DNA of 28,610 nucleotides from assembly GCA_026129385.1 (NCBI GenBank), contig JAHCIE010000003.1:1-28610 (forward strand), written 5' to 3'. The notes beneath the pieces were generated by a model, which searched no databases, had not been told where the DNA came from, and saw only the letters and a program-made list of their open reading frames with translations. The position numbers and the translations under genes are program-made. Source of the stretch: Anaerolineae bacterium (lineage in GTDB: Bacteria; Chloroflexota; Anaerolineae; Epilineales; JAHCIE01). Positions 5,838-28,610 of this stretch are shown here, piece after piece (the stretch's first letter is position 1; each line of letters opens with the position of its first letter).

Positions 5838-5844
5838 GATCCTG

Positions 5845-13568: not shown

Positions 13569-14096
13569 ATGGGTATATCCGCCGTTGCACCCACCCACTC
13601 AGTTGATACCCCTACCTGGTACGCGCTCCACACCAAGCCCCACGCTGAGCAGCAGGTCACGACGGCGCTGCAAGCGCGTGGCTTCGAGACCTACCTGCCG
13701 ACGATCCCTGTCTGGCGCGCCCGGCGGCGTCAAACCGAGGCCGAGCCATTCTTCGAGTGCTACAGCTTCGTGCGGGTAGCCCTCTCGGTGGTGGGCCTGT
13801 CGGCCATTACCTGGGTGCCCGGCCTCCGCGCGGTCGTCAGCAGCGAGGGCCACCCCATCCCTATCGCACCCTCCGTCATTGACACGATCCAGCGCCACCT
13901 GGGCCACCTACCGCCTACCGGGCCGCGCCGCCTGGAGCCTGGGGATCGGGTCGAGATTACCACTGGCCCGCTGCAAGACCTGGAGGGCATCTTCCAGGGC
14001 CACCTGTCAAGTGTCGAACGCGCCCAGGTATTGGTCAACGTTCTAGGGCGAATGACCCGTGTCGAGATTCGGGAGAACTGGCTCAGGAGGATCTGA
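13569..14096 (+). CDS. NusG paralog (RfaH/LoaP/UpxY-like specialised antiterminator): NGN + KOW
   Basis: The NGN start is WYALHTKPHAEQQVTTALQARGFETYLPTI and the KOW motif is GDRVEITTGPLQDLEGIFQG. The protein is 175 aa. AGGATAAGAGGA lies upstream of the ATG. It is the first gene of a long polysaccharide-type operon, the classic position for specialised NusG paralogs. Confidence 0.85.
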   Translation: MGISAVAPTHSVDTPTWYALHTKPHAEQQVTTALQARGFETYLPTIPVWRARRRQTEAEPFFECYSFVRVALSVVGLSAITWVPGLRAVVSSEGHPIPIAPSVIDTIQRHLGHLPPTGPRRLEPGDRVEITTGPLQDLEGIFQGHLSSVERAQVLVNVLGRMTRVEIRENWLRRI

Positions 14097-14097
14097 G

Positions 14098-15171
14098 ATG
14101 CTCATCGCACGAGCGCCGGTCCGCATCAGCCTCGGCGGTGGCGGAACTGACCTGGCCGCCTACTATCGCCCCTACGGGGGTATGGTCATCAGCGCGGCCA
14201 TCGACAAGTACTTCTATACCTTCATCTCGCGCGGCGCGCAGGACGAGGGGGTGCAGGTCATCTCCTCCGACTATCGAACGTTCTACCGCCACGACCCGCG
14301 CCAGCCCTTCTTCTGGGATGGCAACCTGCAGCTGCCGCGCGCCATCCTGCACCACTTCGGCGTCGAGCGTGAGTACGATGTGTTCCTGGCGTCGGAGGTC
14401 CCGCCCGGCACCGGCCTCGGCTCGTCGGGCAGCGTGGCCGTCACGCTGGTACGCGCCCTGAGTACCCTATCCGACATCCCCATGTCGCGACAGGAAATTG
14501 CCGAGACCGCTGCGTACATCGAGATCGAGAAGATGGGCATGCCAGTCGGCAAGCAAGACCAGTACATCGCCGCCTTTGGCGGTGTGAAGGTGATCACCTT
14601 TGCCGCCGACGGTGTCACGGTTGAACCGCTCCAACTCGACGACACCACGCTGGAGCGCCTGGAAAGCCGTCTCATCTTGTTCTTCACCGGTAGCAGCCGC
14701 GAGTCGTCCAATATCCTGGAGCATCAGAAGCGGGCCAGCGAGAAGCGTGACCCTGCCGTCATCGATGCCCTGCACGCGATCAAGGCGCTGGCCCACAACA
14801 TGCGCAGCTTCCTTGAGTTAGGCGACCTGGACGGCTTCGGCCAACTGCTGGACGAGTCCTGGCATGAGAAGAAGAAGCTGGCCCCGAACGTTTCCTCGTC
14901 GGGCATCGACCGCTGGTACGCGCTGGCTCGCCAGCACGGCGCGGTCGGCGGCAAGGTGACCGGCGCGGGCGGCGGCGGCTTCCTGATGCTCTACTGCCCT
15001 GTCGATCGCCAGGCTGCCGTCACCCAGGCCCTGGAGGCCGATGGCCTCGTCCGCATGAACTTCCACTTTGACTTCCAGGGCGCAACCGTCCTCTTGAACA
15101 CCCTATCACGCACGAATGGAGTCCAGGCGCAGCCCTCATGGGCAACGGCGCGTATCGCCGCCCTCCGATAG
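14098..15171 (+). CDS. GHMP-family sugar kinase, D-glycero-D-manno-heptose-7-phosphate kinase (HddA)-like
   Basis: The N-terminus is ARAPVRISLGGGGTDLAAYY and GHMP motif II is PPGTGLGSSGSVAVTLV. The start is set at ATG 14098, one nt after the NusG-paralog TGA and preceded by AGGAGGA. The track start at 14059 would overlap the upstream gene. Confidence 0.8.
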   Translation: MLIARAPVRISLGGGGTDLAAYYRPYGGMVISAAIDKYFYTFISRGAQDEGVQVISSDYRTFYRHDPRQPFFWDGNLQLPRAILHHFGVEREYDVFLASEVPPGTGLGSSGSVAVTLVRALSTLSDIPMSRQEIAETAAYIEIEKMGMPVGKQDQYIAAFGGVKVITFAADGVTVEPLQLDDTTLERLESRLILFFTGSSRESSNILEHQKRASEKRDPAVIDALHAIKALAHNMRSFLELGDLDGFGQLLDESWHEKKKLAPNVSSSGIDRWYALARQHGAVGGKVTGAGGGGFLMLYCPVDRQAAVTQALEADGLVRMNFHFDFQGATVLLNTLSRTNGVQAQPSWATARIAALR

Positions 15172-15191
15172 TCCCCCCTAAGGAGGTGGTC

Positions 15192-15842
15192 GTGAGAGTC
15201 GTATTTCTCGATCGGGATGGCGTCATCAACGAGAACCGCCCCGATCACGTCAAGTCGTGGTCAGAGTTCCAGTTCCTGCCGGGCGCCCTCGAGGCCCTGC
15301 GCCTGCTACACGAGGCAGGCTGGCGGGCGATTGTGGTCACCAACCAGGCCATCATTCACCGCAACATCGTCCCAAGCGCCGCCGTGGACGACATCAACCA
15401 GCGGATGCGTGAGGCCGTCGAGATTCACGGTGGCCACATCGATGCCGTGTTGTACTGCCCCCACAGGCCTGAAGAGAACTGTGAGTGTCGCAAGCCTCGC
15501 CCCGGTCTGCTTCGGCAAGCCGCGACCCAATTCAACCTCCCGCTAGACCAGTGCTACATCATCGGCGACGCCTACAGCGACATTCAGGCGGGCCGCGCCG
15601 TCGGCTGCCGCACAATCATGGTGAAGACCGGTCGCGGCTTGCAGCAGATGATGACCGCGCCGCCCCTGTCCCTGCGCCCCCATCAAGTCGTCAGGGACCT
15701 CGCCGACGCCGCGACATGGATGGTTCGGGCCGAGCGACGCCGCCAGCTCTTGCATATCCCCGACTCGGACCTACCCATCGACGTTCCACCCATCACCCCC
15801 GTTAGCCTCTTCCCGTGGTCAAGCAACTCCAGCTCTACATGA
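15192..15842 (+). CDS. gmhB: HAD-IIIA sugar bisphosphate phosphatase, GmhB-like
   Basis: FLDRDGVIN (nucleophile motif), VVTNQ, and the Zn-loop [17 protein letters not shown] are typical of D,D-heptose 1,7-bisphosphate phosphatase. The GTG start at 15192 follows AAGGAGG. Confidence 0.75.
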
Positions 15843-16558
15843 TGCGGCAGGCGGCGAGCCTGCGCTACTATCTCATCGAACAGACGATCATGACGCTCTT
15901 CGGGTGGATGCCAACCATCGTCGGCATTGGCCTGCGGAGCGTCGTGTATCGCCTGATTCTGCGCATGGACGGCACGGCCGCCATCGAGAACGGGGTGCGG
16001 CTGCGCTTCGCCAGCAACATCCACCTGGGCCACGGCGCGTACCTCGACCACGGCGTCTATCTACACGCCTGCCCCAACGGCATCAGCATCGGCCCACATA
16101 GCCTGGTGATGCATGGCTCCGTCCTGCACGTCTACAACTTCCGCCATATGCCGCATTCGGGCATCCGAATTGGTCGCGACAGCCTGATCGGCGAGTACAA
16201 CGTGCTGCGCGGTCAGGGCGGCATCAGCATCGGCCATCGGGTCTACACCTCACCCCTCGTCCAGATGCTGGCGGTCAATCACCTCTTCGACGACCCCACG
16301 CGGCCCTTCATCAGCCAGGGCATCACGGCCCAGGGCATCGTGGTGGAGGATGACGTCTGGATCGGCGGCGGCGCTATCATCACCGACGGCGTGCGCATCG
16401 GGCGCGGCGCGGTGGTGGCGGCGGGCGCAGTCGTGACGAAGGATGTACCGCCTCACACCGTCGTCGCCGGCGTCCCTGCCCGTATCGTTCGCCATATCGT
16501 TGCCAACGGCGCGCAGCCACGCGCCGAGACCGTGTATTACTCCGAGGGGGACGCATGA
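15839..16558 (+). CDS. Left-handed beta-helix (hexapeptide-repeat) acyl/acetyltransferase
   Basis: IGHRV..., [50 protein letters not shown] is the classic LbH C-terminus. ATG 15839 overlaps the gmhB-like stop (ATGA). An alternative in-frame start exists at 15815. Confidence 0.8.
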
Positions 16559-17829
16559 CTGTAGACGCTGCACTTCGCCCCATCGACTTCGCCCGGCCCG
16601 CCGTCGTCGCACCGTTGCTACCGCCGGTCACCCTATCGGTGGTGATCCCCGCGCTCAACGAGGAGGACGGCATTGCCGACATCGTCCACCGCATCCAGGC
16701 CGTTGCGCCGGCGTTGCGGGAGGTGGGGGTCGAGCATCTCGAAATCATTGTCGTGGACGACGGTTCCACCGACCGTACCGCTGAGATTGTGCAGAGTATG
16801 CCCGGCGCGCGCCTGGTCCGCCATCCGGTCAACCGGGGGTATGGTGCGGCCATCAAGACCGGCTTCCTCGCCGCGCATGGCGAGTTGCTCGCCTTCACCG
16901 ACGCCGACGGGACGTACCCACCCGAGCGTTTCCCCAGCCTGTGCCAGGCCGCGCTCGTCGATGGGGCGGACGTGGCCGTGGGGTCGCGCCGCTCTGGGGC
17001 CGAGAGTCACATGCCGATGGTGCGGCAGGTGGGCAACTTCATCTGGTCCAACCTGGTCAGCGTCATCGGCAACCAGCGCGTGGCTGACCCGGCCAGTGGC
17101 ATGCGCGTGGTGCGCCGCGACGCGCTGGCGCAGCTGTACCCACTGCCCGACGGCCTCAACTTTACCCCGGTGATGAGCACGCGCTCGGTCCACGAGGGCC
17201 TCAAGGTAGTCGAAATTCCCATCGCCTACAGCGAGCGGGTCGGCCGCTCCAAGCTCAGCGTCGTCCGTGACGGGACGCGCTTCCTCAAGACGATTCTCTG
17301 GACCTCACTGGAGTACAACCCGGCGCGCCTGCTGGGTATGGTGGGGCTGGCGTGTGTCGTCCTGGCCGCCATCCTGGCGGCGGGTCTCGTCGCCCTGCGT
17401 GCCCAGGGCGTGACGCAGCTGGGACCGTGGGGCGTGTTCTGCCTGTTCACGGCGATGGTGCTCAGCTTCGTCGGCGTCAGCACGTTCTCCCTCGGCGCGA
17501 CCTTCAACTATCTCGTCTCCCTCTTCCGCCTGGAGACGGTGCTGGTGGGCCTCTTCGGGCGACCCATCTTCAGCACGCCACTGGACCGCCACTTCTGGTG
17601 GATGGGACTGACGGCCGGCGGTCTGGGTATCGCCCTCGCCGTGGTCGCCCTGGTCATGGGCCTCCAGGGTGGGGATATCTCGCGCTCATGGTTTTGGATG
17701 CTGACCAGCGCCTTCCTGGCCCTGATCGGCCTGCAACTGTTCATCTCGTGGATTCTCATGCGCGTGCTAGAGGCGCTGAGCGAGCGCGAAGTCCGCATCA
17801 ACCAGGAAATGGCCCGCGTCACGCCGTAG
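16555..17829 (+). CDS. GT2 glycosyltransferase with four C-terminal TM helices (polyprenyl-phosphate sugar synthase type: GtrB/ArnC/DPM1-like)
   Basis: [32 protein letters not shown] and FTDADGTY form the GT-A catalytic core. The C-terminal ~170 aa contain four hydrophobic helices. The ATG overlaps the upstream stop (ATGA). Confidence 0.85.
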
Positions 17830-17868
17830 ACATCGGTTAGCGTTGCGATAGACGATCGAGGAGGGGGC

Positions 17869-19545
17869 ATGGCAGTTATCCAGAATGGCATCCAGCCCGA
17901 GGACATCAAGACTCGGGACGAGCTACGTCACAACCTGGGCACGCGCGCTGTCAAAGCGCCGCGCCCGCCTGAGTTCCCCGACGCGGGCGCGGCGGTCCGC
18001 GACCTGACGCACGTGCGGCCCCCGACGGCCGTCGATGTGCTGCTCGTCAATCCCCCATCTCCCGATGGCGGCATCTGGATTCGCACCCAACACCGCGTGG
18101 GGCGACGCAGCCGCGAGGAGATGATCTGGCCCCAGTGCTCCCTGGCCCAGCACGCCGCCATGCTCCACCCCGAGTATACAGTCGCCATCGTGGACTGTAT
18201 CGCCGAGGGGATGGGTTGGTCACAGTTCGAGGCGCTGCTGCGCGAGAAGGCCCCCAAGTATTACTTTACCCAGGTCACCGCGCCGACGCTCACCAACGAC
18301 ATGTACGGCGTCATGCTGGCCAAGAGCCTGGGCGCGATCACCATGGCCTTTGGCACGCATGTCACTGCCATGCCCACCGAGACGATGCGCGACTTCCCGG
18401 CGCTCGACTTCGTGATTCGCGGCGAGCCGGAGCTGACCTTCCGCGAGCTAATTGACGTTCTCGAGGGCCGCGAGACCGACCGCGCCGAGTGGGTTCAGGC
18501 GATTCTAGAGAAGTCCGATCCGTGGTGGAAGCCCGTCGGCCATCACGGCCCGCAGAACGGAACCCCCATCGACCTGACGAACCTCAAGGGGCTGGTCTGG
18601 CGCAAGAATGGCGACATTACGATGAACGCTACGCGCCCCTGGATCGCCAACCTGGACGATCTACCCATCCCCCTCTACCACCTGCTGCCGCTGGACAAGT
18701 ACCGCATGCCCTTGATGAAGGGGCCGTTCGTGTTCATGGTCACCAGCCGTGGCTGTACGGCGGGCTGCAAGTACTGCATCAAGCACGTCACCTACCAGTG
18801 GTCGGTGCGGCTGCACTCGCCGGAACGGATTATCCAGGAGATGTGGCTGCTGCACGACCTGGGCATCCACAACATCCACATGTACGCCGACCTCTTCACC
18901 ATCAACCGCGAGCAGGTGGTCCAGCTGTGCCAGCTGATCATCAAGGAGGGCTTGAAGGTCAAGTGGACCTGCAACAGCCGCGTCGACTACGTGGACGAAG
19001 AGATGCTCAAGCTCATGGGCCGCGCGGGCTGCTGGATGATCTCGTGGGGCATCGAGAGCGGCAATGAGGCCATCCTCAAGCGCGCTGCCAAGGGCGCGGA
19101 CCCCAAGAAGGCCAAGCAAGCCCTGACCTGGGCGCGGCAGGCCGGCATCAAGAACTGGGGCTACTTCATCATCGGCCTACCCGGTGAGACGGTCGAGACG
19201 ATCCGCGAGACGATCGACTTTTCCAAGAGCCTGCCCCTGGAGTTGGCCCTGTTCCATATTGCCGCCCCCTACCCCGGTACGCCCTTCTTCTTCGAGGTGG
19301 TCGAGAACGGCTGGTTCAAGCCCGGCACGAAGTGGGAAGAAGTCGACATGGACAAAGGCACCGTCCTCCAATACGACAATCTCTCCGCCGAAGACCTCAT
19401 GTACTGGCAGAAGCAGGCCTTCAAGGAATGGGCCTTGCGGCCCGGCCCAGCCAAGACCTACGCCAAGATGCTGGTAAGCGATAGCGCCACCTTCAAGCGC
19501 GCCGTTCGTGTCGGTATGGAGCACCTCCAGTGGGCGCTCCGGTAG
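17869..19545 (+). CDS. B12-binding (class B) radical SAM enzyme
   Basis: The N-terminal Rossmann-like cobalamin domain runs VDVLLVNPP...VAIVDCIAEG...AITMAFGTHVTAMP...DFVIRGEPE. It is followed by the radical SAM cluster motif SRGCTAGCKYC (CxxxCxxC). GAGGAGGGGG lies upstream of the ATG. Confidence 0.9.
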   Translation: MAVIQNGIQPEDIKTRDELRHNLGTRAVKAPRPPEFPDAGAAVRDLTHVRPPTAVDVLLVNPPSPDGGIWIRTQHRVGRRSREEMIWPQCSLAQHAAMLHPEYTVAIVDCIAEGMGWSQFEALLREKAPKYYFTQVTAPTLTNDMYGVMLAKSLGAITMAFGTHVTAMPTETMRDFPALDFVIRGEPELTFRELIDVLEGRETDRAEWVQAILEKSDPWWKPVGHHGPQNGTPIDLTNLKGLVWRKNGDITMNATRPWIANLDDLPIPLYHLLPLDKYRMPLMKGPFVFMVTSRGCTAGCKYCIKHVTYQWSVRLHSPERIIQEMWLLHDLGIHNIHMYADLFTINREQVVQLCQLIIKEGLKVKWTCNSRVDYVDEEMLKLMGRAGCWMISWGIESGNEAILKRAAKGADPKKAKQALTWARQAGIKNWGYFIIGLPGETVETIRETIDFSKSLPLELALFHIAAPYPGTPFFFEVVENGWFKPGTKWEEVDMDKGTVLQYDNLSAEDLMYWQKQAFKEWALRPGPAKTYAKMLVSDSATFKRAVRVGMEHLQWALR

Positions 19546-19562
19546 TGTTCGGGTTGGCTTGA

Positions 19563-19576
19563 CCCCGGGGGGGGGG
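19563..19576 (+). repeat. C4-G10 homopolymer tract in the 38-nt spacer, ending 7 nt before the next start codon
   Basis: ccccgggggggggg; the G run is 19567-19576, followed by ttcgtgg and then ATG at 19584. Confidence 0.95.
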
Positions 19577-19583
19577 TTCGTGG

Positions 19584-21192
19584 ATGACCGATTATACGCC
19601 CGACGCACGCGAGAAGGCGCTCGCGTTGCCGTCGTTGCTGCCGCCGCAGCTCCTTGTCCGCGAGCTGGCCTGCTTCGCCGTCGCGTTTGTCGGCGCTCTT
19701 CTCCTCTATGTGCCGTTCCTATCGATTCAGTTCGATATCAATAGCATCATCGAGGCCCAGGCGGTGGAGCGCGGCGGAACGTTCCTGTTCTCCCCTAATC
19801 GGCTGCTGTATCGAGCCATAGGGGCGCTGGGGTATGAACTCGCGCTACAGAGTTCCGGCCCATCGTTGCCGTTGTTGCAGTTTTTGAGCGCGTTCCTATC
19901 GACTGTCGCCATCGCAGTATTCTGCGTCGTGACCTTTCGGCTCACGAGAAGCATGACCGTGGCGTTCTGGGCCTCGGCCCTGCTGGCGACCTCGTGGTCG
20001 TTCTGGGCCTACAGCACCGACGCCTACTATATCACCCCGGCCGCGCTGGCCATCTTCTGCGCCCTGGCGCTGCTCATTCCAGCGACGACCAGCCTGCGAG
20101 CGGCCATTGGCGCGGGTGTGTTCGTGTGGGCGGGCATCCTGCTGTGGCAAGCCAACATCTTCGCTATTCCCTTGTGTCTCGGCCTCATTCTTCTACGCGC
20201 CGCGCCATGCCCGGCATTATGGCAGACGAACGCTCTGGCCTTCCTGGTGGTCGTCGGCGGCCTCACGGCGGCCAGCTACCTCACAGCGGCCATCGCTGTC
20301 CACGGCCTCGCTGACGGGCCAGCGTTGCTCGACTGGCTGCTATCCCACGGTAGCGACCAATTCGGTCGGCCCTCGATCTGGGGCGTCTGGTCCCTCGACC
20401 GTGTCCCGGCCGCCTTCCTGGCGGCCATCTCTAGCTGGATACCCGTGTGGGATGGCCTGGGCCTGCGGAAGTTAGCCCAGGGGCAGATACAACTTCACAA
20501 GGTCATCCCCCAACTCTCACCTTCGTCGCGCTGGGCATGTTGCTGGCGCTCCTGGGCCACGAGCTTACCCGTTGGAAATCCGCGCGCCCCGAATCGAAGC
20601 GGTTGGGGTGGCTACTCCTCGCCGGCTATCTCGCCTATCTGCCCTTCGTTGTGTGGTGGGACCCGGCCCCCAAGTGGTTCGTCATCCCCAACGCCTTCCT
20701 GGTATTGGGCGCGGCCCTCCTGCTATCCAGGTATCTTCATCGTAGAAATCCAGGCCCGCGTTCCTGCATCGCCGGCTCGGTCGCCATCATCGCGGCAGCC
20801 AATCTCAGCTCCTCCGTGTATCCGCGTCACACCACCCCGCCGCCGAGATTCCCATTGCCGAGTGCTTTGTGCAGGCCACCACGCCACGGGATACGCTGGT
20901 CCCCCTCGACTGGGTCTGGACGGAGTACGCCACGTATCTATTTGGCTATCGCGGCGCGGTCCTCGGACTCCCGCCGAATCTATCGGCCGTAGGCCCCATC
21001 CGCGCCGCGATCGAGAGCGCCGAGAGATCGGGCGGCAACGTGTACGTTGTGGACAAGCGCGACGCTCCACCCGACGTCCAGCAGCGCATCCGTGACACTG
21101 GCTACGCGCTCGATGCCGTCCTGGCGTTTGAGCACCAGCCTGCCTTCTCGTGTGGCGACGTGCGCTTTTCGAGATTGCAGATAGCTCCTTAG
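19584..21192 (+). pseudogene. Polytopic membrane protein (possible GT-C-type transferase or polymerase) with a soluble C-terminal domain, interrupted by two 1-nt frame shifts in poly-C runs
   Basis: Three consecutive track ORFs (19584.., 20447.., 20869..21192) each contain a protein-like stretch that turns into Arg/Pro/Ser junk past a junction. The frame order is 0, 2, 1. The junctions map to C5 (20507-20511) and C4 (20835-20838). Adding one C at each gives a continuous 536-codon ORF (...LHKVIPPTLTFVALGML... and ...VYPRHTTPAAEIPIAECFVQ...). This could be an assembly artefact. Confidence 0.6.
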
Positions 21193-21234
21193 CGCCGCCC
21201 GCGCCTGGCCCTGAAATACCTTGACGCACCCCCT

Positions 21235-21283
21235 AGCGCGCCGTTCGTGTCGGCCTGGAGACCTCCAGCAGGCGCTCCAGTAA
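21235..21283 (+). repeat. Decayed copy of the 3' end of the radical SAM gene (relic gene fragment)
   Basis: By hand alignment, 21235-21283 matches 19496-19545 at 43 of 50 aligned columns, with a 19-nt identical run (agcgcgccgttcgtgtcgg) and one 1-nt gap. It would encode RAVRVGLE/LQQALQ* versus RAVRVGMEHLQWALR*, with the stop codon at the same position. Confidence 0.7.
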
Positions 21284-21299
21284 GGCCCGGGCGGGGAGA

Positions 21300-21369
21300 G
21301 CGGGACAGATGCGCGTGACCCCATTCGTCCCCCCCGGTGGGTTCACATCCCCCTGGACGTCTGTCCCGC
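21300..21369 (+). other. 70-nt extended stem-loop in the 300-nt gap before the second GT2
   Basis: The outer arms are a perfect 10-bp inverted repeat: gcgggacaga (21300-09) and tctgtcccgc (21360-69). Inner gtgacccc / gggttcac can pair with one mismatch. The element contains a C7 run (21329-35). Confidence 0.35.
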
Positions 21370-21491
21370 ACCTCTCTCCACAGCCCTGGCCTGACTTGAC
21401 TTCGCTGCTGGCTCCCGGTCGGTTGCACGTTACCGGATAACTGACCCACAAGCGTCCTCAGCCCTGAATAGAGACTCTGGAGTTATGCCGC

Positions 21492-22265
21492 ATGGACATC
21501 TCAATCATCGTTCCCTGCTACAACGAGGCCGAGAATACTGACAAGCTGCGACGCGAACTGTTCCCGATCCTGGCGGAACTGGCGCGGGAGAGCAAGGTCG
21601 AATTGCTGCTGGTGGATGATGGCAGCACGGACCGCACCCTGGAAGCCCTGGCGTCCCTTCTCGACACGCCGGAGTTGGGGGGAGTGGAAGCGCGGATTCT
21701 GCAGCACGGCACAAACCGTGGGCTGGGCGCCGCGCTCCGCACGGGGTTCGGCGCGGCGCGTGGTAATGTCATCGTCACGACGGACAGCGATGGGACGTAT
21801 CGCTTCACCGAGATACCAACCCTGCTACGCTACATCGATGCGGGGGCCGACATCGTCACGGCGTCGCCCTATCACCCGCAAGGGGGCGTGGAGGGTGTGC
21901 CTGCCTACCGCCTCGTCCTTAGCCGTGGTTCGTCGCTCCTGTACCGTCTCACCGTTGACCCGCGGATTCACACCTACACCGCTCTCTTCCGCGCCTACCG
22001 CCGCCGCGTCATCGATACCATCCCCTTCGAGTCGGATGGGTTCCTGGCCGGCACGGAACTACTCGTCAAGGCTTCGCTGGCTGGCTACCGTGTCGTGGAG
22101 TGTCCCGCCGTACTCCACGTACGGCAATATGGCGCGTCAAAGGCCAAGATCGCGCGTACCATTCGCGCCCACCTCGGCTTCCAAAGCCAGATCGTGTTGG
22201 GTCGCCTGAATGTGCCCTCGGCCGCCGACGTTCGACCGTCGCTTGGAGGTGAGAAATGGGCGTAG
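21492..22265 (+). CDS. GT2 glycosyltransferase, soluble DPM1/polyprenyl-phosphate sugar synthase-like
   Basis: [36 protein letters not shown] and TTDSDGTY. The protein is 257 aa with no TM segment. Confidence 0.85.
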   Translation: MDISIIVPCYNEAENTDKLRRELFPILAELARESKVELLLVDDGSTDRTLEALASLLDTPELGGVEARILQHGTNRGLGAALRTGFGAARGNVIVTTDSDGTYRFTEIPTLLRYIDAGADIVTASPYHPQGGVEGVPAYRLVLSRGSSLLYRLTVDPRIHTYTALFRAYRRRVIDTIPFESDGFLAGTELLVKASLAGYRVVECPAVLHVRQYGASKAKIARTIRAHLGFQSQIVLGRLNVPSAADVRPSLGGEKWA

Positions 22266-22297: not shown

Positions 22298-22666
22298 ATG
22301 TCGATTGCAATCGCGTATATCCTGGTCGCCGTCGTAGCGAGCGCGGTCGGTCAGATTCTGCTCAAGAAGGGGATGGTCAGTCTGGGCGCGGTCACGCTGT
22401 CCGTGGGCGACCTACCCGGCACCATCTGGCGGATTGGCACCAACCCCTATGTCTTCATCGGGTTACTGGTGTATGTGACCGGCACCCTGTTCTGGCTCTC
22501 CGCCCTGTCCCGCGTCGACCTTAGCTACGCCTACCCCTTCGCCAGTCTCAGCTACATCGTCATGCTGGCGGCGGGCTGGCAGATCTTCAACGAAGACATT
22601 AGCCCGATGCGCCTGATGGGGACGTTCGTGGTGGGTCTGGGCGTGCTCCTTATCGCCAGAAGCTAG
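22298..22666 (+). CDS. Small 4-TM EamA/SMR-like protein, ArnE/ArnF-type polyprenyl-phosphate-sugar flippase candidate
   Basis: VGQILLKKGM ... VDLSYAYPFASLSYIVMLAAGWQIFNEDIS ... GTFVVGLGVLLI resembles ArnE/ArnF. The start is set at ATG 22298 after GGGAGG; the track start at 22256 overlaps the upstream gene. Confidence 0.7.
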   Translation: MSIAIAYILVAVVASAVGQILLKKGMVSLGAVTLSVGDLPGTIWRIGTNPYVFIGLLVYVTGTLFWLSALSRVDLSYAYPFASLSYIVMLAAGWQIFNEDISPMRLMGTFVVGLGVLLIARS

Positions 22667-22693
22667 CTTGTACCTACGAGGGACGGGGGAAAG

Positions 22694-23830
22694 ATGAAGA
22701 TTCTATCTATCGTCGGGGCGCGGCCCGAGTTTATCCAGGCGGCGCCGGTGAGTCTGGCTCTACGCGGTGAGCACCGCGAGATTCTGGTCCACACCGGCCA
22801 GCACTACGACTACCTGATGTCGCAGACCTTCTTCGATGAGTTGGGCATTCCTGCGCCTGACTACAACCTTGAAGTGGGGTCCGGCTCCCATGCCGGGCAG
22901 ACGGCGCAGATGATGACGCGGTTGGAACCCATCGTGCGCGACGAGCAGCCCGATCTGGTCATCGTGCGCGGCGATACCAACTCGACCCTGGCCGGCGCGC
23001 TGGTCGCCGCCAAGCTCGGCATCCCCACCGCCCATATCGAGGCGGGCGAACGCAGTTTCGACCGCTCGATGCCCGAAGAAATCAACCGCCTCCTCACCGA
23101 TTCTGTGTCCAGCCTGCTCTTTTGCGCCAGCCAGACAGCGGCGTGGCGGCTCGTGGCTGGTGGCGCGACGGATGTACACTGGGTCGGGGACGTCATGCTG
23201 GACGCCTGCCGGCGCTATCTGCCTATCGCGCGCCGCAGTTCGTCCATCCTGGCGCGCGTGGGCCTCCTCGACAGCGAATACAGCCTGGTGACGATTCACC
23301 GCGCCGCCAACACCGACTCGCCCGATCGCCTTTCTCAGATCGTGCAGGCCCTGAATAGCTGCGGCGAGACGGTGGTCTTCCCTGTCCATCCTCGCACCCG
23401 CCACGCCCTCGACAGCCTCCCCGCCCGCTTCGGGCCTCACGTGCGGCTCATCGAGCCAGTCGGTTACCTGGACATGATGATGCTGGAAGCCCACGCGCGG
23501 CTCATCGCCACCGACTCGGGCGGCGTACAGCGCGAGGCTTACTTCCTCGCGACGCCGTGCCTGACGCTCCGCGACGAGACAGAGTGGACCGAGACTGTCA
23601 CAAGCGGTTGGAACCGGCTGGTCGGTGTCGACCCCGACGGGATTCTTGCCGCGTGGCGATCGTTTGTCCCACCAACGGAGTATCCGCCCATCTTCGGCGA
23701 CGGCACGGCGGGGGCGCGCATCGCCGCTGTGCTCAGCGCGTGGACGCCCTCCCATCGCGTCACCGCCGACGCCATCGAGACCAACGGCCACGGCACGCTG
23801 CCCCTTGTGCGAGGCGACGTATGGAAGTAG
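22694..23830 (+). CDS. wecB: UDP-N-acetylglucosamine 2-epimerase (non-hydrolysing type)
   Basis: MKILSIVGARPEFIQAAPV, HTGQHYD, PDLVIVRGDTNSTLAGALVAAKLGIPTAHIEAGERSFDRSMPEEINR. Confidence 0.9.
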   Translation: MKILSIVGARPEFIQAAPVSLALRGEHREILVHTGQHYDYLMSQTFFDELGIPAPDYNLEVGSGSHAGQTAQMMTRLEPIVRDEQPDLVIVRGDTNSTLAGALVAAKLGIPTAHIEAGERSFDRSMPEEINRLLTDSVSSLLFCASQTAAWRLVAGGATDVHWVGDVMLDACRRYLPIARRSSSILARVGLLDSEYSLVTIHRAANTDSPDRLSQIVQALNSCGETVVFPVHPRTRHALDSLPARFGPHVRLIEPVGYLDMMMLEAHARLIATDSGGVQREAYFLATPCLTLRDETEWTETVTSGWNRLVGVDPDGILAAWRSFVPPTEYPPIFGDGTAGARIAAVLSAWTPSHRVTADAIETNGHGTLPLVRGDVWK

Positions 23831-25203
23831 CTATCATCGGCGGCGGCATCATGGGCGTGACGCTGGGCTACTACCTGGCGCAGCGCGGCGTGAGCGTCGA
23901 CATCTACGAGGCATCGCCCGTCGCGGGCGGCCTGGCCGGTCCCATGACCCTGCCCGACGGGACGGCCATTGACCGCTTCTATCACGCCATCCTGTCCAGC
24001 GACAGCCACCTGACCCGGTTGTGCGCCGAGCTTGGCATCGCCGACCAGTTGCGCTTTCGCGAGACGCGCATGGGCTTCTACCGCCAGGGCGCGATCTACT
24101 CGATGAACAATGTTGCCGAGTTCCTGCGCTTTCCGCTTCTCAACCCGCTGGACCGCATGCGCCTCGGCTTCACCGTCCTGGCCGCGCAGCTGGTCCGCGA
24201 CTGGCATCAGTTGGAGGGCGTCAGCGTCGAAGACTGGCTCGTGCGCCTCAGCGGCCGCCGCGCCTTCGACACCGTATGGCGGCCCATGCTCATGGCGAAG
24301 TTCGACGGCGGCTTCGAGGACACCCCGGCGACTTACATCTGGTCGCGGCTGGTCCGCATGAAGTCCACCCGTGAGGGCGCCAACCAGAAGGAGATGGCGG
24401 GCCACCTCATCGGCGGCTACATCACCCTCATCAACGCCCTGGTCGAGCGCATCCAGGCGGCGGGCGGCCGCCTGCACCTCAGCACGCCGGTGCGCGAGGT
24501 GGTCATCGAGAACGGGCGGGCGGTGGGCGTGCGACTGGCCGACGGCGTGCGCCGCTTCGACGCCCTGGCCGTCACGATGCAGGCCCCCATCTTCCAGCGC
24601 CTGATCCCTGGCGCAGCCGAAGACTATCGCGCCTTCCTGGGCCAGACCGAGTACCTGGGCATTGTGTGTCCCGTCGTCGTCCTCGACCGGCCTCTGACGG
24701 GCTATTGGACCCTCAACATCACCGATGAGAGTGTTCCCTTCACCGGCGTGATCGAGACGACCGCCTACATCGACCCCCAATACGTCGGCGGCCACCACCT
24801 GGTCTACCTGCCCAAGTACACCGCCCCCGGTAGCCCGTGGCAGCAGAAGACCGACGCCGAGATTCAGGAACTATGGCTGGCGAGCCTGGAGCGCATGTTC
24901 CCGCGTTTCGCCCGCGACCAGGTGCGCTACTTCCTCGTCCATCGCGAACGCTACGTCGAGCCGCTCCACCGGCTCAACGGCACGGACGCCATTCCCGGCG
25001 TCCAGACGCCCATCGCTGGCCTGACCCTGTGCACCACCGCCCAGATCTACCCGGCCCTCACCAACGGCGAATCCGTTACCCGCCACGCTGAGAGCGCCGC
25101 CGAGCTGCTGCTGAACGGCCTCCTGGCGCGCCGCTCGGTCGCCGACGATGTCGCCATGGCGACGCCGGTTGCGCCCCTGGACAGCGTCGCGGTCACGCGG
25201 TAG
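23821..25203 (+). CDS. FAD-dependent oxidoreductase of the amine-oxidase/protoporphyrinogen-oxidase/phytoene-desaturase superfamily
   Basis: The dinucleotide-binding N-terminus is MEVAIIGGGIMGVTLGYYLAQRGVSVDIYEASPVAGGLAG. The ATG at 23821 overlaps the wecB 3' end by 10 nt. The upstream 88 codons of the track ORF are Arg-rich junk inside wecB. Confidence 0.8.
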   Translation: MEVAIIGGGIMGVTLGYYLAQRGVSVDIYEASPVAGGLAGPMTLPDGTAIDRFYHAILSSDSHLTRLCAELGIADQLRFRETRMGFYRQGAIYSMNNVAEFLRFPLLNPLDRMRLGFTVLAAQLVRDWHQLEGVSVEDWLVRLSGRRAFDTVWRPMLMAKFDGGFEDTPATYIWSRLVRMKSTREGANQKEMAGHLIGGYITLINALVERIQAAGGRLHLSTPVREVVIENGRAVGVRLADGVRRFDALAVTMQAPIFQRLIPGAAEDYRAFLGQTEYLGIVCPVVVLDRPLTGYWTLNITDESVPFTGVIETTAYIDPQYVGGHHLVYLPKYTAPGSPWQQKTDAEIQELWLASLERMFPRFARDQVRYFLVHRERYVEPLHRLNGTDAIPGVQTPIAGLTLCTTAQIYPALTNGESVTRHAESAAELLLNGLLARRSVADDVAMATPVAPLDSVAVTR

Positions 25204-25213
25204 GTGCGCCTCG

Positions 25214-27451
25214 ATGAGGAACCCCATCGCCATGCGCCTCAACATCGTGCCCACATCCCTTCGGCTCGCGGCGGCGGTCGGCCTGGCCGCCCTGCTGCTG
25301 GCGCGGGGCGGCCCCCTGTCGGCGGCCAGCCCATCCATATGCGATAACCCGCCCAATCCTGTCGTGGCGGAGAATTGTCGCCCTGGTGCGGCCGACTGGG
25401 CCGTGACGCGGCCGCTCGGCGACATCGAGGGCTTCGCCTCACCCACCAGTGTCGCGCCCGGTGCGACGCTTCAGTTTCGTGTCAACACCGATGCGCCGAC
25501 GTTTAACCTGGACATCTATCGCACGGGCTACTACGGAGGCGCCGGCGCGCGCCTGGTCGACAGCATCACCGATCTACCGGGCCAGGTGCAGCCCGATTGC
25601 CGCACCGACCCACGCCTGGGCCTCACGAGTTGCGCCAACTGGTCGCCCTCCCACACCTTGACGGTGCCCAGCGACTGGGCGAGCGGCGTCTACCTTGCTC
25701 GGCTCACGCGGCCCGATACCGGCGGCCAGGCGCATGTGACGTTCGTCGTGCGCGACGACTCGCGCCAGGCGTCCATCTTCTACCCGTTGGCGCTCACGAC
25801 GTACCAGGCCTACAACTGGTTTGGCGGCAAGTCCCTCTACAGCGTCTCCAGTGGGGCCTGCCGCACCGTCGCCGAAGCCCCGCGCGCTGTCAAGGTGTCC
25901 CTCGACCGCCCGCTGGCTTTGTCTGTGCCCTACTTCAACACCTACGAGTGGGCCGACTTCCCGATGGTCTACTGGCTGGAGAGTCAGGGCTACGACGTGA
26001 GCTATGGGACCAGCCTGGACGTCCACCAGGCGGGTAAAGCCGGTGCGCCCAACACCCTCCTGCAGCATCAGATCATCCTCATTGCGGGCCATGACGAGTA
26101 CTGGTCGGGTGAGATGCGCGATGCGATGATGGCGGCGCGTGACGCGGGGGTAAATCTCGCCTTCCTGTCGTCGAACGTCAGTTACTGGCGCATCCGATTT
26201 GAGCCAGACCCCTGGACCGGCGAGGCGGACCGCGTCATAGTAGGCTATAAGACGACCGAGAGCGGCAACCCCGACCCCAGTGGCGTGCCGACCGGAACAT
26301 GGCGCGACCCAGCGGGGGCGAACGACCCGGAGAATGAGCTCGTCGGCATCCAATATGTGGGCGACAATGACATCCGCTTCTTCCCGCTCCGCGTGACGGC
26401 TGAGCATGCCGCCGACCGCCTGTACCGGCATACCGACTTGCAGGCCATGCCCCCCGGCACGTATGCCGACATCGGGCGACACATTATCGGTTGGGAGTGG
26501 GACGCGATCACCGACAACGGGCGCACGCCCGGCGGCATTAATATCCTGGCCGAGACACCGGTCTTTGGCAGTCTGCTGACCGATGACGGCGGCGCCTACG
26601 AGTTGGGTACAACCACCAGCCACGTCACCCGCTATGTGGCCCCCAGCGGCGCCACGGTCTTTGCGGCGGGCACCAACCTGTGGCCGTGGGGGCTGGCGCT
26701 GGTCGAGCCGGATGGCCGCCTGCAACAGATCACGGTCAATCTCCTGGCTGACATGGGAGTCCGGCCGGCGATGCCGGCGCATCATATCCAGCTCGATGAC
26801 ACGCCCGCCAGGAGTGGCGAGGCGGCCCTGACCGAAGACGCCTCAGCGACGGGGACAGCGGCCAGCGTTGGCCGCGCTATCCGGGATGCCCTGGCCTCGA
26901 TGGACCTTGATATGACCGCCCAGGGCGAAGAGGCCAGTTCCTCCACGGCCGCCCGCCCCATGCCCGCGCCGGGTGGGCCGACGCTATCGCCCGCCCGCAC
27001 CTCTATCGTCGGCGACGCAGCGACCATAGAGTGGGAGACGGACATTCCCAGCAGCGGTCAGGCCTGGATCTGGCGGGAGAAGGGGCGAGTCGACTGGAGC
27101 CTCGCGAACCTCGCCTTTGGGCAGCTGCCGAGCATCGGGGATGGCGCGCATGAGACGCCCTCGCTCTCCCACTCCATAGCCATCGATGGGTTGGACCCCA
27201 GCTCCACCTACTACTATCAGATCGCCTCGACCGACACCGACGGGCGCACCACCATCGCCGCGCCCGCGGAGTTGCGCACGCCCAGAGGATCGGCGAAGGC
27301 CGAAGCCCAGCGACTCCTGCGACCGGTCTACCAGCGCATCCGCTGCGAAATCCAGATCAGTGGGCCGGCGCCAATCGGCCTGTTCGTGATGGCAGTCATG
27401 CTCTGCCTGGTCGCGGCTTCCTACGTAGCGTACCAGAGATGGGCGCGGTGA
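25214..27451 (+). CDS. Secreted, C-terminally membrane-anchored protein: N,N-dimethylformamidase-beta-subunit-like domain + FN3/purple-acid-phosphatase-N-like domain
   Basis: Signal peptide: LRLAAAVGLAALLLARGGPLSAAS. The DMFase-beta-like family region is ENCRPGAADWAV...IEGFASPTSVAPGATLQFRV...DIYRTGYYGGAGARLV...SGVYLARL...FVVRDD...TTYQAYNWFGGKSLY. The FN3-like region (about 26978-27285) is ATIEWETD...HSIAIDGLDPSSTYYYQIASTD. The terminal TM helix is IGLFVMAVMLCLVAASYVAY. Confidence 0.7.
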   Translation: MRNPIAMRLNIVPTSLRLAAAVGLAALLLARGGPLSAASPSICDNPPNPVVAENCRPGAADWAVTRPLGDIEGFASPTSVAPGATLQFRVNTDAPTFNLDIYRTGYYGGAGARLVDSITDLPGQVQPDCRTDPRLGLTSCANWSPSHTLTVPSDWASGVYLARLTRPDTGGQAHVTFVVRDDSRQASIFYPLALTTYQAYNWFGGKSLYSVSSGACRTVAEAPRAVKVSLDRPLALSVPYFNTYEWADFPMVYWLESQGYDVSYGTSLDVHQAGKAGAPNTLLQHQIILIAGHDEYWSGEMRDAMMAARDAGVNLAFLSSNVSYWRIRFEPDPWTGEADRVIVGYKTTESGNPDPSGVPTGTWRDPAGANDPENELVGIQYVGDNDIRFFPLRVTAEHAADRLYRHTDLQAMPPGTYADIGRHIIGWEWDAITDNGRTPGGINILAETPVFGSLLTDDGGAYELGTTTSHVTRYVAPSGATVFAAGTNLWPWGLALVEPDGRLQQITVNLLADMGVRPAMPAHHIQLDDTPARSGEAALTEDASATGTAASVGRAIRDALASMDLDMTAQGEEASSSTAARPMPAPGGPTLSPARTSIVGDAATIEWETDIPSSGQAWIWREKGRVDWSLANLAFGQLPSIGDGAHETPSLSHSIAIDGLDPSSTYYYQIASTDTDGRTTIAAPAELRTPRGSAKAEAQRLLRPVYQRIRCEIQISGPAPIGLFVMAVMLCLVAASYVAYQRWAR

Positions 27452-27458
27452 GGTTCAT

Positions 27459-28610
27459 ATGACAGACTGGACGGTGGGCGTTCCGCAGCGCGTACGGGCG
27501 TCCCTGCCGGCGCGCTACAGGCAGCTGACGTTGGGTGAGCGACTGGCCCTGCTGGCGCTCCTGGTCTTGCTGCCCGTGGTTACGCTCTACAACCTGCCCT
27601 ACGGGCCACGGACCTGGCACGATGAGGGCGCCGCCCTGAACGTCGCCAAGACCCTCGCCACGGAGGGGGTCTACGCGATGCGCAACTCCGACGGCTATCA
27701 GACGTTCGGCCCCATCCAGAGCGTCGGGCCAACGGTTCTGCTGCCCGTCGCGCTGGCTCTCAAGCTGTTCGGCATCGGCCTGTTGCAGGCCCGCCTGGTA
27801 GCGGCGGCCTACCTGTGCCTGCTGCTCGCCGTTGCGGCGTTCCTCGCCTGGCGACTCTTTGGGCTGCGGACGGCCATCGTGACGATATTCCTGCTGCTGG
27901 CTGTACAGGATGTGCGACTCCTGTACTTCGGGCGTCAGGTGCTGGGCGAAGCGCCCGCCCTCATGTTCTTTCTGGGTGGGGTAGGCCTGTTCACTCTGAA
28001 GGCGCGCGGTCGACTGCTTGTCGCCGTGGCAGCCGGGCTACTCATCGGCGCGGCCATGGTGACGAAAAGCACCTATATCGCCATTGGCTTCGTGACGTTG
28101 GCCATGATGGGCGGCCTCGACTGGTTCTACTACCGCCAGCACAATCGGCGCGGGCTGGTCGTAGCCGTCCTCGTTGCCGCCGCGTGTGTCGTGGCCTGGA
28201 TGGGGGCGCAATACGCCTACTTCGGGCCTGACATCTTCTGGGACAACTCCAGGAAGATGCAGCAGTTAGCGACCGGCACGACAGGCTTCAACCCGCGGGT
28301 GATGGCCGCATCCCTGCAATTCTTCATGGGCTCCGGATCGGGGCACTTCCTGTACCTCTGGGGTCTCCCGGCCCTCCTCTATGGAGTCTTCCTGGCCCGG
28401 CGCCGCGACCAGTCCGGCTTCATAGCTGCCTTGCTGCTCATCTTTGCCGTCCTCTGGCTGGGCTATTACTTCTGGAGCGTCCCCTGGATCGCCTACCTCT
28501 TCGCCCCGGCCGCCATCGCGGCCTTCTTCGTCGCGAAGCTCTGGCACGATCTGACCGCTGGCTTCACGCTACCCGGAGCAGCCCTGCGCCAGGAATGGGA
28601 CCAGGGGCGA
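27459..28610 (+). CDS. GT-C fold polyprenyl-phosphate-sugar-dependent glycosyltransferase (PMT/ArnT, GT39/GT83-like), 3'-truncated by the window edge
   Basis: Not in the ORF track because no stop is reached. My hand translation from ATG 27459 stays open for 384 codons: MTDWTVGVPQRV...LLALLVLLPVVTLYNLPYGPRTWHDEGAALNVAKTLATEGVY... followed by at least 9 hydrophobic helices. The first-loop acidic motif WHDEG is typical of GT-C enzymes. The track ORF 27815..28231 is an out-of-frame shadow. Confidence 0.75.
   Translation, partial: MTDWTVGVPQRVRASLPARYRQLTLGERLALLALLVLLPVVTLYNLPYGPRTWHDEGAALNVAKTLATEGVYAMRNSDGYQTFGPIQSVGPTVLLPVALALKLFGIGLLQARLVAAAYLCLLLAVAAFLAWRLFGLRTAIVTIFLLLAVQDVRLLYFGRQVLGEAPALMFFLGGVGLFTLKARGRLLVAVAAGLLIGAAMVTKSTYIAIGFVTLAMMGGLDWFYYRQHNRRGLVVAVLVAAACVVAWMGAQYAYFGPDIFWDNSRKMQQLATGTTGFNPRVMAASLQFFMGSGSGHFLYLWGLPALLYGVFLARRRDQSGFIAALLLIFAVLWLGYYFWSVPWIAYLFAPAAIAAFFVAKLWHDLTAGFTLPGAALRQEWDQGR

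Follow-up and report, generated by a model that had tools for sequence, protein, structure and literature searches.

A probable cell-surface glycan operon of an Anaerolineae bacterium that joins two conserved cassettes of putative lipid-linked sugar enzymes, one containing a radical SAM enzyme and the other a flavoprotein

Glycosylation by a polyprenyl-phosphate-sugar synthase, a flippase and a GT-C transferase, with further enzymes that alter the lipid-linked donor, follows a well-established plan (PMC11127046). It is represented by the Gtr (GtrA/B/V), Arn (ArnC/ArnEF/ArnT) and mycobacterial PPM/DPA systems and by the pentofuranose systems of Kelly et al. 2024 (PMC11127046), which share a GT2 synthase, a small putative flippase of the SMR/EamA type, a GT-C enzyme and a cytoplasmic auxiliary modification of the donor (compare ArnD, DprE1/E2 and the ORF13 epimerase). 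Operon-resident NusG paralogs, such as UpxY, LoaP and TaA, are equally well established at the head of polysaccharide or antibiotic operons; their commonest neighbours are polysaccharide genes, and Chloroflexi go unmentioned in the main text of the two papers cited here (PMC7593976, PMC7819879). A third described relative is the radical SAM enzyme HpnJ, which is known genetically only; its proposed role is the ring contraction of a lipid-linked glucosamine, and the same kind of contraction has been proposed for the archaeal calditol synthase Cds, acting on a lipid-linked hexose (PMC13459092). Here we describe a locus that resembles each of these systems in part. It lies in an Anaerolineae bacterium of the phylum Chloroflexota (assembly GCA_026129385.1, contig JAHCIE010000003.1), in a stretch of 28,610 nucleotides (nt) that we call the window.

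Thirteen open reading frames (ORFs) run on the + strand from 13569 to the window edge, at the coordinates given in an initial annotation of this DNA. We consider that an operon of at least 19 genes for a cell-surface glycan probably begins here, with its 5′ two-thirds inside the window; part of the glycan would be assembled or decorated on the outer face of the membrane, with lipid-linked monosaccharides as the source. At its centre are two gene cassettes that are conserved separately in other genomes: a triad (cassette A) of an acyltransferase, a GT2 enzyme with transmembrane helices (GT2-TM) and a radical SAM enzyme, and a set of four (cassette B) comprising a second GT2 enzyme, a small EamA protein, WecB and a flavoprotein. 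The features of the locus are as follows.

9292..12840, + strand: STAND NTPase (NB-ARC)-TPR-BTAD regulator, AfsR/SARP-like, 1182 amino acids (aa) (Pfam BTAD 1e-26, NB-ARC, TPR)
12841..13568, + strand: long 5′ leader with two 16-nt direct repeats
13569..14096, + strand: operon-resident NusG paralog, NGN + KOW (Pfam NusG 3.5e-16)
14098..15171, + strand: GHMP-family sugar kinase, HddA-like (GHMP_kinases_N + GHMP_kinases_C)
15192..15842, alternative ATG at 15138, + strand: HAD-IIIA phosphatase of GmhB type (PRK08942 match)
15839..16558, + strand: left-handed beta-helix (hexapeptide) acyltransferase, WcaF/Maa-like, triad gene 1 (Hexapep 5.6e-12)
16555..17829, + strand: GT2-TM, with about four C-terminal transmembrane helices, ArnC/DPMS/AglJ-like, triad gene 2 (Glycos_transf_2 1e-31)
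17869..19545, + strand: radical SAM enzyme with an N-terminal B12-binding-like domain, triad gene 3 (Radical_SAM 2e-28)
19584..21192, + strand: gene 7, predicted GT-C-fold membrane glycosyltransferase, frameshifted in this assembly (predicted fold of an orthologue)
21193..21491, no strand: non-coding gap of 299 nt, junction of the first block and cassette B
21492..22265, + strand: soluble DPMS-like GT2 enzyme, 257 aa, cassette B gene 1 (Glycos_transf_2 7.5e-28)
22298..22666, + strand: small EamA/ArnF-like membrane protein, about 122-136 aa, presumed flippase subunit (EamA 8e-8)
22694..23830, + strand: WecB, non-hydrolysing UDP-GlcNAc 2-epimerase (Epimerase_2 2e-102)
23821..25203, + strand: FAD oxidoreductase of the PRK07233 family, with a fold like that of phytoene desaturase (PDS) and protoporphyrinogen oxidase (PPO) (NF005560 match)
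25232..27451, + strand: predicted membrane-anchored extracytoplasmic protein, DMFA2_C domain + FN3-like module (DMFA2_C 5e-103)
27459..28610, + strand: gene 13, GT-C glycosyltransferase, cut by the window end; 535 aa in relatives

How tightly is this array held together? The coordinates and overlaps on which the initial annotation had based its thirteen co-directional, closely packed genes were re-read from the sequence and stand: a TGAgATG junction spans 14094-14100, genes overlap by ATGA at 15839 and 16555 and by 10 nt at 23821-23830, other junctions have gaps of 39, 38, 27, 28 and 7 nt, and a single larger gap measures 299 nt. Nearly all of its gene-by-gene assignments are also supported by Pfam or NCBIfam. 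For the GmhB-type and DMFA2_C proteins the identities are confirmed, but the start positions have been revised, to the GTG at 15192 behind an AAGGAGG sequence (the gene calls in relatives use both starts) and to 25232, the gene call in relatives, respectively. The G+C content of the window is 62-71%.

The locus is found on metagenome contigs that are 99.4% identical in the six compared, and four more contigs were retrieved by exact-protein look-ups. The nearest genome is an Anaerolineae metagenome-assembled genome (MAG; locus L011) of a different species, which is fully collinear with the window over 8770-28610 at 90% DNA identity. This places the window in the Chloroflexota, in line with the high-GC, non-proteobacterial genome assumed in the initial annotation. 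Because the array is kept both in the nearly identical contigs and in this collinear MAG, we regard it as conserved and not as a product of chance. In the metagenome contigs it continues past the window edge with at least six more co-directional genes separated by gaps of no more than 60 nt. Beyond gene 13 are a 521-aa PMT_2 protein and a 775-aa Acyl_transf_3-SGNH (OafA-type) acetyltransferase, and further downstream a 525-aa membrane protein without a Pfam match, a 521-aa PMT/PMT_2 protein and a 945-aa Tat-signal/dockerin protein, which is the last gene within reach (window proteins plus 10 kb) and is itself cut by the locus end. Of the checks that had been proposed for the array, downstream extension shows that it does not stop at the window edge, and neighbourhood comparison that its gene order is co-conserved in another species. 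The idea of a single pathway fared less well: tblastn, the protein look-ups and nucleotide collinearity reveal a mosaic of separately conserved cassettes.

The triad is the most widespread of these. More than 5800 homologues of its radical SAM enzyme were found at E <1e-20 (63-84% identity in other species across three phyla), with 558 confirmed matches among species-representative genomes; the neighbourhood counts given here refer to the best 80 of these 558 loci, compared by tblastn of the operon proteins and by de novo ORF clustering. The 80 loci belong to Chloroflexota (Anaerolineae, Ardenticatenaceae, Caldilineaceae and Promineifilaceae), Acidobacteriota (Bryobacterales, Vicinamibacterales and Solibacteraceae) and one Acidimicrobiia. 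The radical SAM gene is present in all 80, at 61-84% identity outside the same species, and is accompanied on the same strand by GT2-TM in 73-74 (49-71% identity) and by the acyltransferase in 67 (53-78%). The order is that of the window, with the acyltransferase upstream of GT2-TM and GT2-TM directly upstream of the radical SAM gene.

The acyltransferase has WcaF and Maa as its top models, below their equivalog cut-offs. GT2-TM, with about four predicted transmembrane helices, matches ArnC, PfDPMS (Pyrococcus) and GtrB best among solved structures, and its top NCBIfam models are AglJ, Dol-P-hexose transferase and ArnC; for the two GT2 enzymes of the operon together the list is AglJ, Dol-P-hexose transferase, ArnC and PpgS, all below the equivalog cut-offs. 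The GT2 enzyme of cassette B has PfDPMS as its best solved-structure match, followed by ArnC, with GtrB also among the best. Because ArnC, PfDPMS and GtrB lead the structural matches in both cases, the evidence supports the assignment of both GT2 enzymes as polyprenyl-phosphate-sugar synthases.

The radical SAM enzyme scores 100 bits against Radical_SAM, and its CTAGCKYC motif (C296-x3-C300-x2-C303) is invariant in the alignment. The Pfam B12-binding domain scores 25.0 bits, below the cut-off of 32.1, and is flagged in some homologues only. No curated NCBI model reaches its cut-off for this protein; the nearest named family is HpnJ (TIGR03471; 220 bits against a cut-off of 577.6), and an annotated HpnJ is collinear with it over about 500 aligned residues at 28% identity (E 4e-46). 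Its best solved-structure match is the radical SAM enzyme AprD4. The protein had been called a class B radical SAM enzyme. The CxxxCxxC core bears out the radical SAM part of that name, but the B12 part is weak; and because the nearest named relative is HpnJ, which is thought to contract rings and not to methylate, and the best structural match is AprD4, a class B methyltransferase is not established.

The parallel with the hopanoid genes extends to gene order. In an annotated hopanoid locus a GT2 gene (hpnI) directly precedes hpnJ, which is followed by hpnK, so that in both HpnI-HpnJ-HpnK and the triad a GT2 gene lies directly upstream of a radical SAM gene of the putative B12-domain type, a third enzyme handles an acetyl group, and a lipid-linked sugar is the expected substrate. 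The differences are that the GT2 enzyme here is of the ArnC/DPMS class, that the third enzyme is an acyltransferase and not an HpnK-type deacetylase, and that the surroundings are those of polysaccharide assembly, with no hopanoid genes nearby; hopanoid function was not recognised among the recurring neighbour families examined in the 80 loci. Membership of HpnIJK itself was rejected, given the HpnJ score and a GT2-TM that is not HpnI-like. We nevertheless take the action of HpnJ beside a GT2 enzyme on a lipid-linked amino sugar as support for a tailoring role of cassette A. Its product may be a donor out of the ordinary, namely a ring-contracted carbocyclic (cyclitol-like) or C-branched unit on polyprenyl phosphate that is installed by GT-C or Wzy_C-type enzymes, a suggestion that we make tentatively and hold to be doubtful. 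We know of no description of such a unit from the envelopes of Chloroflexota or Acidobacteriota.

What surrounds the triad in other genomes? Directly 3′ of the radical SAM gene, 30-46 of the 80 loci encode a Wzy_C protein, often with TPR repeats. Other frequent neighbours are Bac_transf phosphoglycosyltransferases (24 loci), Wzz/BY-kinase proteins (18) and GT4 enzymes (16), followed by PMT_2 GT-C proteins and small EamA proteins (11 each) and ABC-2/Wzt components (7-11). A small EamA/ArnF-like gene also stands beside the triad in loci without cassette B, for example L014, L015, L017 and L072. Because Wzy_C, phosphoglycosyltransferase, Wzz, GT4 and ABC neighbours are so frequent, we regard the triad as a cassette whose home in other genomes is an ordinary polysaccharide locus. 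Two related loci, L012 and L014, share with the window exactly the segment 14098-19538, which begins with the GHMP kinase gene and ends at the radical SAM stop codon. A conserved 5′ block is thus followed by a variable 3′ part, which in the window comprises cassette B and several GT-C genes; this is the usual layout of surface-glycan loci.

The window itself is unusual in having GT-C enzymes in place of Wzy_C, with no phosphoglycosyltransferase, Wzz or ABC component within reach. Domain searches of the 13 window genes and the six downstream genes found no phosphoglycosyltransferase, Wzx/Wzy/Wzz or ABC (Wzm/Wzt) protein, and hidden Markov models (HMMs) of Wzy_C and phosphoglycosyltransferases built from the related loci matched no operon protein, the 525-aa membrane protein downstream being left without an assignment. 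The absence of these components from the window, reported in the initial annotation, was thus borne out by Pfam and by the local HMMs. Its conclusion that this is not a classical O-antigen or capsule locus applies to this window, but not to the triad elsewhere, which sits inside ordinary Wzz/Wzy_C/GT4/Bac_transf or ABC loci. The backbone machinery may be encoded elsewhere in this genome.

Two of the related loci have a composition of their own. On a soil contig (L093, positions 1-13163; JGI 3300005531), the GT2-radical SAM pair and a NusG paralog are interleaved with genes of the lasso-peptide type (PqqD, Transglut_core3, Asn_synthase and an ABC transporter); the cluster of its radical SAM protein is named Isosphaeraceae by NCBI. 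In a member of the Ardenticatenaceae (L091, 15534-21175), a fused ATP-sulfurylase/APS-kinase and two proteins of the Phosphodiest family are encoded after the array NusG-GHMP-SIS-HAD-triad-Wzy_C-EamA, a finding that hints at a sulfated glycan in that lineage.

Cassette B begins after the 299-nt gap. The protein at 22298 exceeds the EamA cut-off (33 bits against 28.2) and has three hydrophobic segments in a crude hydropathy scan, and WecB exceeds the cut-off of TIGR00236 (298.8 bits against 210). The flavoprotein matches NF005560 (PRK07233) at 449 bits, above the cut-off of 252, a family that NCBI names 'hypothetical protein', and is about 70% identical across many Chloroflexota. Its AlphaFold2 model (pLDDT 81) is closest to 3ka7, an uncharacterised Methanosarcina oxidoreductase, to rice phytoene desaturase and to protoporphyrinogen oxidases. 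Just as tentatively as for the product of the triad, we suggest that this enzyme could redox-edit a polyprenyl-phosphate sugar, in a manner like that of DprE1, or saturate the carrier lipid. A role like that of UDP-galactopyranose mutase was considered and rejected, as no mutase appears among the 50 structural matches listed, which are dominated by PDS, PPO and amine oxidases.

The members of cassette B occur together at 46-71% identity in L011, L044, L052, L077 and L089 (with no ArnF-like match in L089). The order GT2-EamA-Epimerase_2-FAD is also kept in three further genomes (L094, L095 and L096), which have distant homologues of the flavoprotein; no EamA gene is called in L095. In these three, a GFO_IDH_MocA oxidoreductase gene precedes the cassette, and PMT_2 GT-C genes follow it in two of them. 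The 299-nt gap of the window sits where the three genomes have the GFO_IDH_MocA gene, and in relatives the gap is equally long. It holds no plausible ORF. Possibly the GFO_IDH_MocA gene was lost from this locus, or else the gap marks a point where cassettes were joined by recombination. Consensus promoters and terminators are no commoner in the sequence than in shuffles, and none lies inside the gap.

The protein encoded after cassette B carries N- and C-terminal hydrophobic segments. Its DMFA2_C match confirms the DMFase-beta-like identity given in the initial annotation. A sequence search of solved structures gave no match to it. Among the 80 loci it was found in L011 alone, and it is thus a lineage-specific accessory gene.

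The operon also encodes what appears to be an array of GT-C transferases. Neither gene 7 nor gene 13 has a Pfam match. The gene 7 family is rare, with nine proteins found. An AlphaFold2 model of the orthologue P0241 (pLDDT 69.8, pTM 0.73) has, at E below 1e-3, no PDB matches other than GT-C enzymes, namely PglB, ArnT, STT3, ALG12, ALG9 and DPY19 (E 3.5e-6 to 1e-3), and gene 7 is thus predicted to have a GT-C fold. Its identity as a Wzy polymerase was rejected, since it matches neither Pfam nor the local HMMs and the model resembles GT-C folds alone. Gene 13, with about 13 hydrophobic segments, shares 34% identity with the next downstream gene over 488 aa (E 1.5e-44); because that gene passes the PMT_2 cut-off, we assign gene 13 to the GT-C enzymes as well. 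Two downstream genes pass PMT_2, the last of them also matching PMT, and the extended operon thus encodes at least four GT-C proteins. Both transferases of the window had been named in the initial annotation. The possibility raised there for 19584 is borne out by the fold model of the orthologue; the assignment of 27459 is upheld by paralogy to a PMT_2 protein, though it has no Pfam match of its own. With ArnC/DPMS-like GT2 enzymes, an ArnF-like EamA protein as the putative flippase and GT-C enzymes, candidates for all three parts of a polyprenyl-phosphate-sugar system are present, as had been claimed.

In the assembly of the window, gene 7 is disrupted by six indel events (20187, 20216, 20521, 20759, 20769 and 20835; net -2 nt), which put it out of frame from about 20521 onward. 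The gene is intact, at 536 aa, in all six contigs compared. Its mismatches to these otherwise 99.4%-identical contigs are clustered in patches, including 19614-19700, and it is the most divergent gene between strains (84-94% identity, against 96-100% for the radical SAM gene). The disruption may be a consensus error in the assembly of a strain mixture or a recent pseudogenisation; the pattern of divergence suggests a strain-variable specificity gene or an artefact of the assembly consensus.

At the head of the operon, the Pfam NusG domain spans residues 16-107 of the first protein, and the RfaH/NusG models and solved structures align over residues 16-173, KOW included. The protein falls below the cut-offs of the NCBIfam models for RfaH (84.5 against 144.5 bits), UpxY (59.5 against 100), LoaP (34.8 against 125) and housekeeping NusG (TIGR00922; 51.8 against 135.7), and its gene neighbours are the STAND regulator and glycan genes, not secE or rplK. 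Judging from these matches, the gene at 13569 is best assigned as a specialised NusG paralog, distinct from housekeeping NusG and outside the RfaH, UpxY and LoaP subfamilies; it is presumed to be a processive antiterminator. In 25 of the 80 related loci a NusG paralog is encoded on the same strand no more than 10 kb away, and in 23 of those it stands upstream of the triad. Like UpxY, LoaP, TaA, RfaH and ActX, it is an NGN + KOW protein that comes first in a very long surface or secondary-metabolite operon behind a long leader and is recurrently associated with polysaccharide genes. It differs from them in its scores below the subfamily cut-offs and in its host phylum, Chloroflexota, with related examples in Acidobacteriota and Acidimicrobiia. 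A dedicated NusG paralog outside the Proteobacteria had been put forward as undescribed; this is not supported, given that such paralogs are of an established kind (PMC7593976, PMC7819879) and that a NusG paralog recurs among the related loci.

Does the leader carry a recruitment signal? About 729 nt separate the STAND regulator and the NusG paralog. They contain a 16-nt direct repeat, ATGGGCGGAGCCTGCC, with copies at 13383-13398 and 13465-13480, the core of which, GGCGGAGCCTG, occurs at these two sites only in the whole window. Both copies are present in L011 (one of them with one mismatch) and one in L012, and the repeat is not conserved in loci more distant than these two. Its sequence is loosely like that of the RfaH ops element with one T missing. 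As a lead only, the repeat could be a recruitment site or a site bound by a regulator; where RfaH has its ops element, the present locus has this lineage-restricted, loosely ops-like sequence. The ops element itself was sought as GGCGGTAGnnTG and rejected, its matches being no commoner than in shuffled sequence. Rfam gave no match in the window or in the leader, and the fold of the leader RNA is not significant (z-score -0.42). The STAND regulator is co-directional with the operon and 82% identical in L011, and this NB-ARC/TPR/BTAD protein may be a candidate pathway regulator.

Next to the NusG paralog are genes that recall the GDP-D-glycero-alpha-D-manno-heptose pathway (GmhA-HddA-GmhB-HddC). 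The kinase at 14098 has HddA as its best model (198 bits against a cut-off of 600) and is 69-73% identical in L012 and L014; it adjoins a phosphatase that passes the cut-off of PRK08942 (GmhB; 181.6 bits against 178). A GmhB-type phosphatase is present in 20-21 of the 80 loci, a GHMP kinase in 16 and a SIS (GmhA-like) gene in 8, and in related loci the SIS gene lies between the kinase and the phosphatase. The present locus differs from the pathway in that the kinase is far below the HddA cut-off and in that neither SIS (GmhA) nor NTP_transferase (HddC) was found by Pfam among the operon genes in the window. In two Acidobacteriota (L035 and L036), a GmhB-like HAD phosphatase is inserted between GT2-TM and the radical SAM gene, a position from which it may act on a lipid-linked sugar and not in the supply of nucleotide sugars.

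How might these parts work together? Starting from the observed domain identities, gene order, cassette conservation and GT-C fold of gene 7, we infer every substrate, the order of the steps, the acceptor, the structure of the transcript and antitermination. The NusG paralog would ride with RNA polymerase and suppress pausing, termination and polarity along the long transcript. The HddA-like kinase and the GmhB-type phosphatase would supply a sugar-1-phosphate, most likely of a heptose. On the cytoplasmic face, GT2-TM of cassette A would load a sugar onto polyprenyl phosphate, and the HpnJ-like radical SAM enzyme and the hexapeptide acyltransferase would tailor that sugar, at either the lipid-linked or the nucleotide-sugar stage. 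In cassette B, WecB would yield UDP-ManNAc, the DPMS-like GT2 enzyme would transfer its sugar or a derivative to polyprenyl phosphate, and the PDS/PPO-like flavoprotein may oxidise or reduce the lipid-linked sugar or the polyprenyl chain. The ArnF-like protein would then flip the donors across the membrane, where the GT-C array (19584, 27459 and at least two downstream genes) and the OafA-type O-acetyltransferase would attach these sugars to an extracellular acceptor. Compared with the Gtr, Arn, PPM/DPA and pentofuranose systems, this scheme differs in placing two synthase cassettes in one operon; in auxiliary enzymes that occur in no described system, namely the HpnJ-like radical SAM enzyme with the left-handed beta-helix acyltransferase, and the PDS/PPO-like flavoprotein; and in its array of at least four GT-C paralogues, which is nearer to mycobacterial arabinan/mannan assembly than to the addition of a single side chain.

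Several findings count against this reading. The presumed flippase subunit scores only 56.6 bits against ArnF (cut-off 99) and 30 against ArnE (cut-off 92), and it is encoded by one gene and not by an ArnE/ArnF pair. GT2-TM has no significant similarity to HpnI. Because neither HddC nor GmhA is encoded in the window, the heptose route is incomplete here, and gene 7 is frameshifted in this assembly. The gap between the two halves could contain an internal promoter or terminator that the consensus scan missed. Finally, Wzy_C enzymes use diphosphate-linked donors; because a Wzy_C gene so often follows the radical SAM gene elsewhere, the coupling of the triad to GT-C enzymes is not general.

Other explanations must also be weighed. 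GT-C enzymes of the PMT/PMT_2 type could glycosylate secreted or S-layer proteins, in the manner of actinobacterial Ppm1/Pmt mannosylation, with the DMFA2_C and Tat/dockerin proteins as candidate targets. The operon does encode these two large extracytoplasmic proteins, its last downstream GT-C enzyme matches PMT as well as PMT_2, and Wzy_C-TPR proteins follow the triad in many loci, the Wzy_C domain being found also in PglL-type protein O-oligosaccharyltransferases. We consider protein O-glycosylation unlikely all the same: four or more GT-C paralogues with an OafA-type acetyltransferase fit the assembly or decoration of a polymer better, ArnT-like transferases of lipids and glycans also belong to PMT_2 in Pfam, and elsewhere the triad keeps company with the Wzz/BY-kinase, phosphoglycosyltransferase and GT4 genes typical of polysaccharides. 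The same company bears on the idea that cassette A modifies a membrane glycolipid at its head group, the radical SAM enzyme rearranging the sugar in place, as in the conversion of bacteriohopanetetrol glucosamine to the cyclitol ether by HpnI-HpnJ-HpnK or as in calditol synthase. That HpnJ is the closest named family, that a GT2 gene directly precedes hpnJ in hopanoid loci as here, and that HpnJ and Cds are both proposed to be ring-contracting radical SAM enzymes on lipid-linked hexoses (PMC13459092) speak for it. Yet the radical SAM enzyme falls far short of the HpnJ cut-off, GT2-TM belongs to the ArnC/DPMS/GtrB class, and the neighbours within 10 kb in the 80 loci serve glycan assembly, with no hopanoid or ether-lipid function recognised among the clusters examined; flippase-like and transferase genes accompany the cassette inside polysaccharide loci. 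A glycolipid head group therefore seems to us quite improbable.

It might further be argued that the heptose module, the triad, cassette B and the membrane proteins are neighbours by chance or by synteny, make no common product, and leave the NusG paralog to act on the first few genes only. Other genomes do have the cassettes apart from one another, the conservation shared with L012 and L014 ends at the radical SAM stop codon, and the 299-nt gap splits the two halves. Against this, a conserved 5′ block with a variable 3′ block behind it is usual in surface-glycan loci. At least 19 genes are co-directional, with overlaps or gaps of no more than 60 nt save for the 299-nt gap, another species keeps the whole gene order at 90% nucleotide identity, and all recognisable products belong to glycan biosynthesis. 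We therefore hold mere juxtaposition to be very unlikely and retain the reading of one surface-glycan operon assembled from cassettes.

Outside the operon, a GH130 beta-mannoside phosphorylase gene and a type I phosphomannose isomerase gene adjoin each other upstream (6481-8582) and may perhaps be tied to the supply or salvage of mannose. At the far left, on the - strand, a polyphosphate kinase (19-1881) and a CDGSH iron-sulfur protein with a divergent 4Fe-4S domain (3902-4624) appear to be of housekeeping type and unrelated to the operon.

What, then, is new here? A glycan operon led by a NusG paralog and the design of polyprenyl-phosphate sugar, flippase and GT-C transferase are known kinds, and the operon as a whole would not greatly surprise a glycobiologist. 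Our literature search found no description of the triad, of cassette B or of this gene order, and no paper describing the combination, in agreement with the initial annotation, which had not recognised it as a described pathway. No characterised member or paper was found for either cassette, and each is a concrete and widespread target that lends itself to testing.

Soils, sediments and wastewater sludge are rich in Chloroflexota and Acidobacteriota, whose envelope glycans have, to our knowledge, been little characterised chemically. The window brings to light two highly conserved (60-80% identity across phyla) and very widespread cassettes, one that pairs an HpnJ-like radical SAM enzyme with a polyprenyl-phosphate glycosyltransferase and one that combines a PDS-like flavoprotein with WecB, a DPMS-like GT2 enzyme and an ArnF-like protein. 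Since a NusG paralog recurs at the head of such loci, further phyla would also use antitermination dedicated to glycan operons. If the enzymes of the cassettes do edit lipid-linked sugars, radical and flavin chemistry would join the short list of donor-editing steps represented by ArnD and DprE1/E2, and the cassettes would give a handle on glycan diversity in uncultured phyla. If the triad makes the unit suggested above, that unit would be a widespread building block, encoded in hundreds of species genomes.

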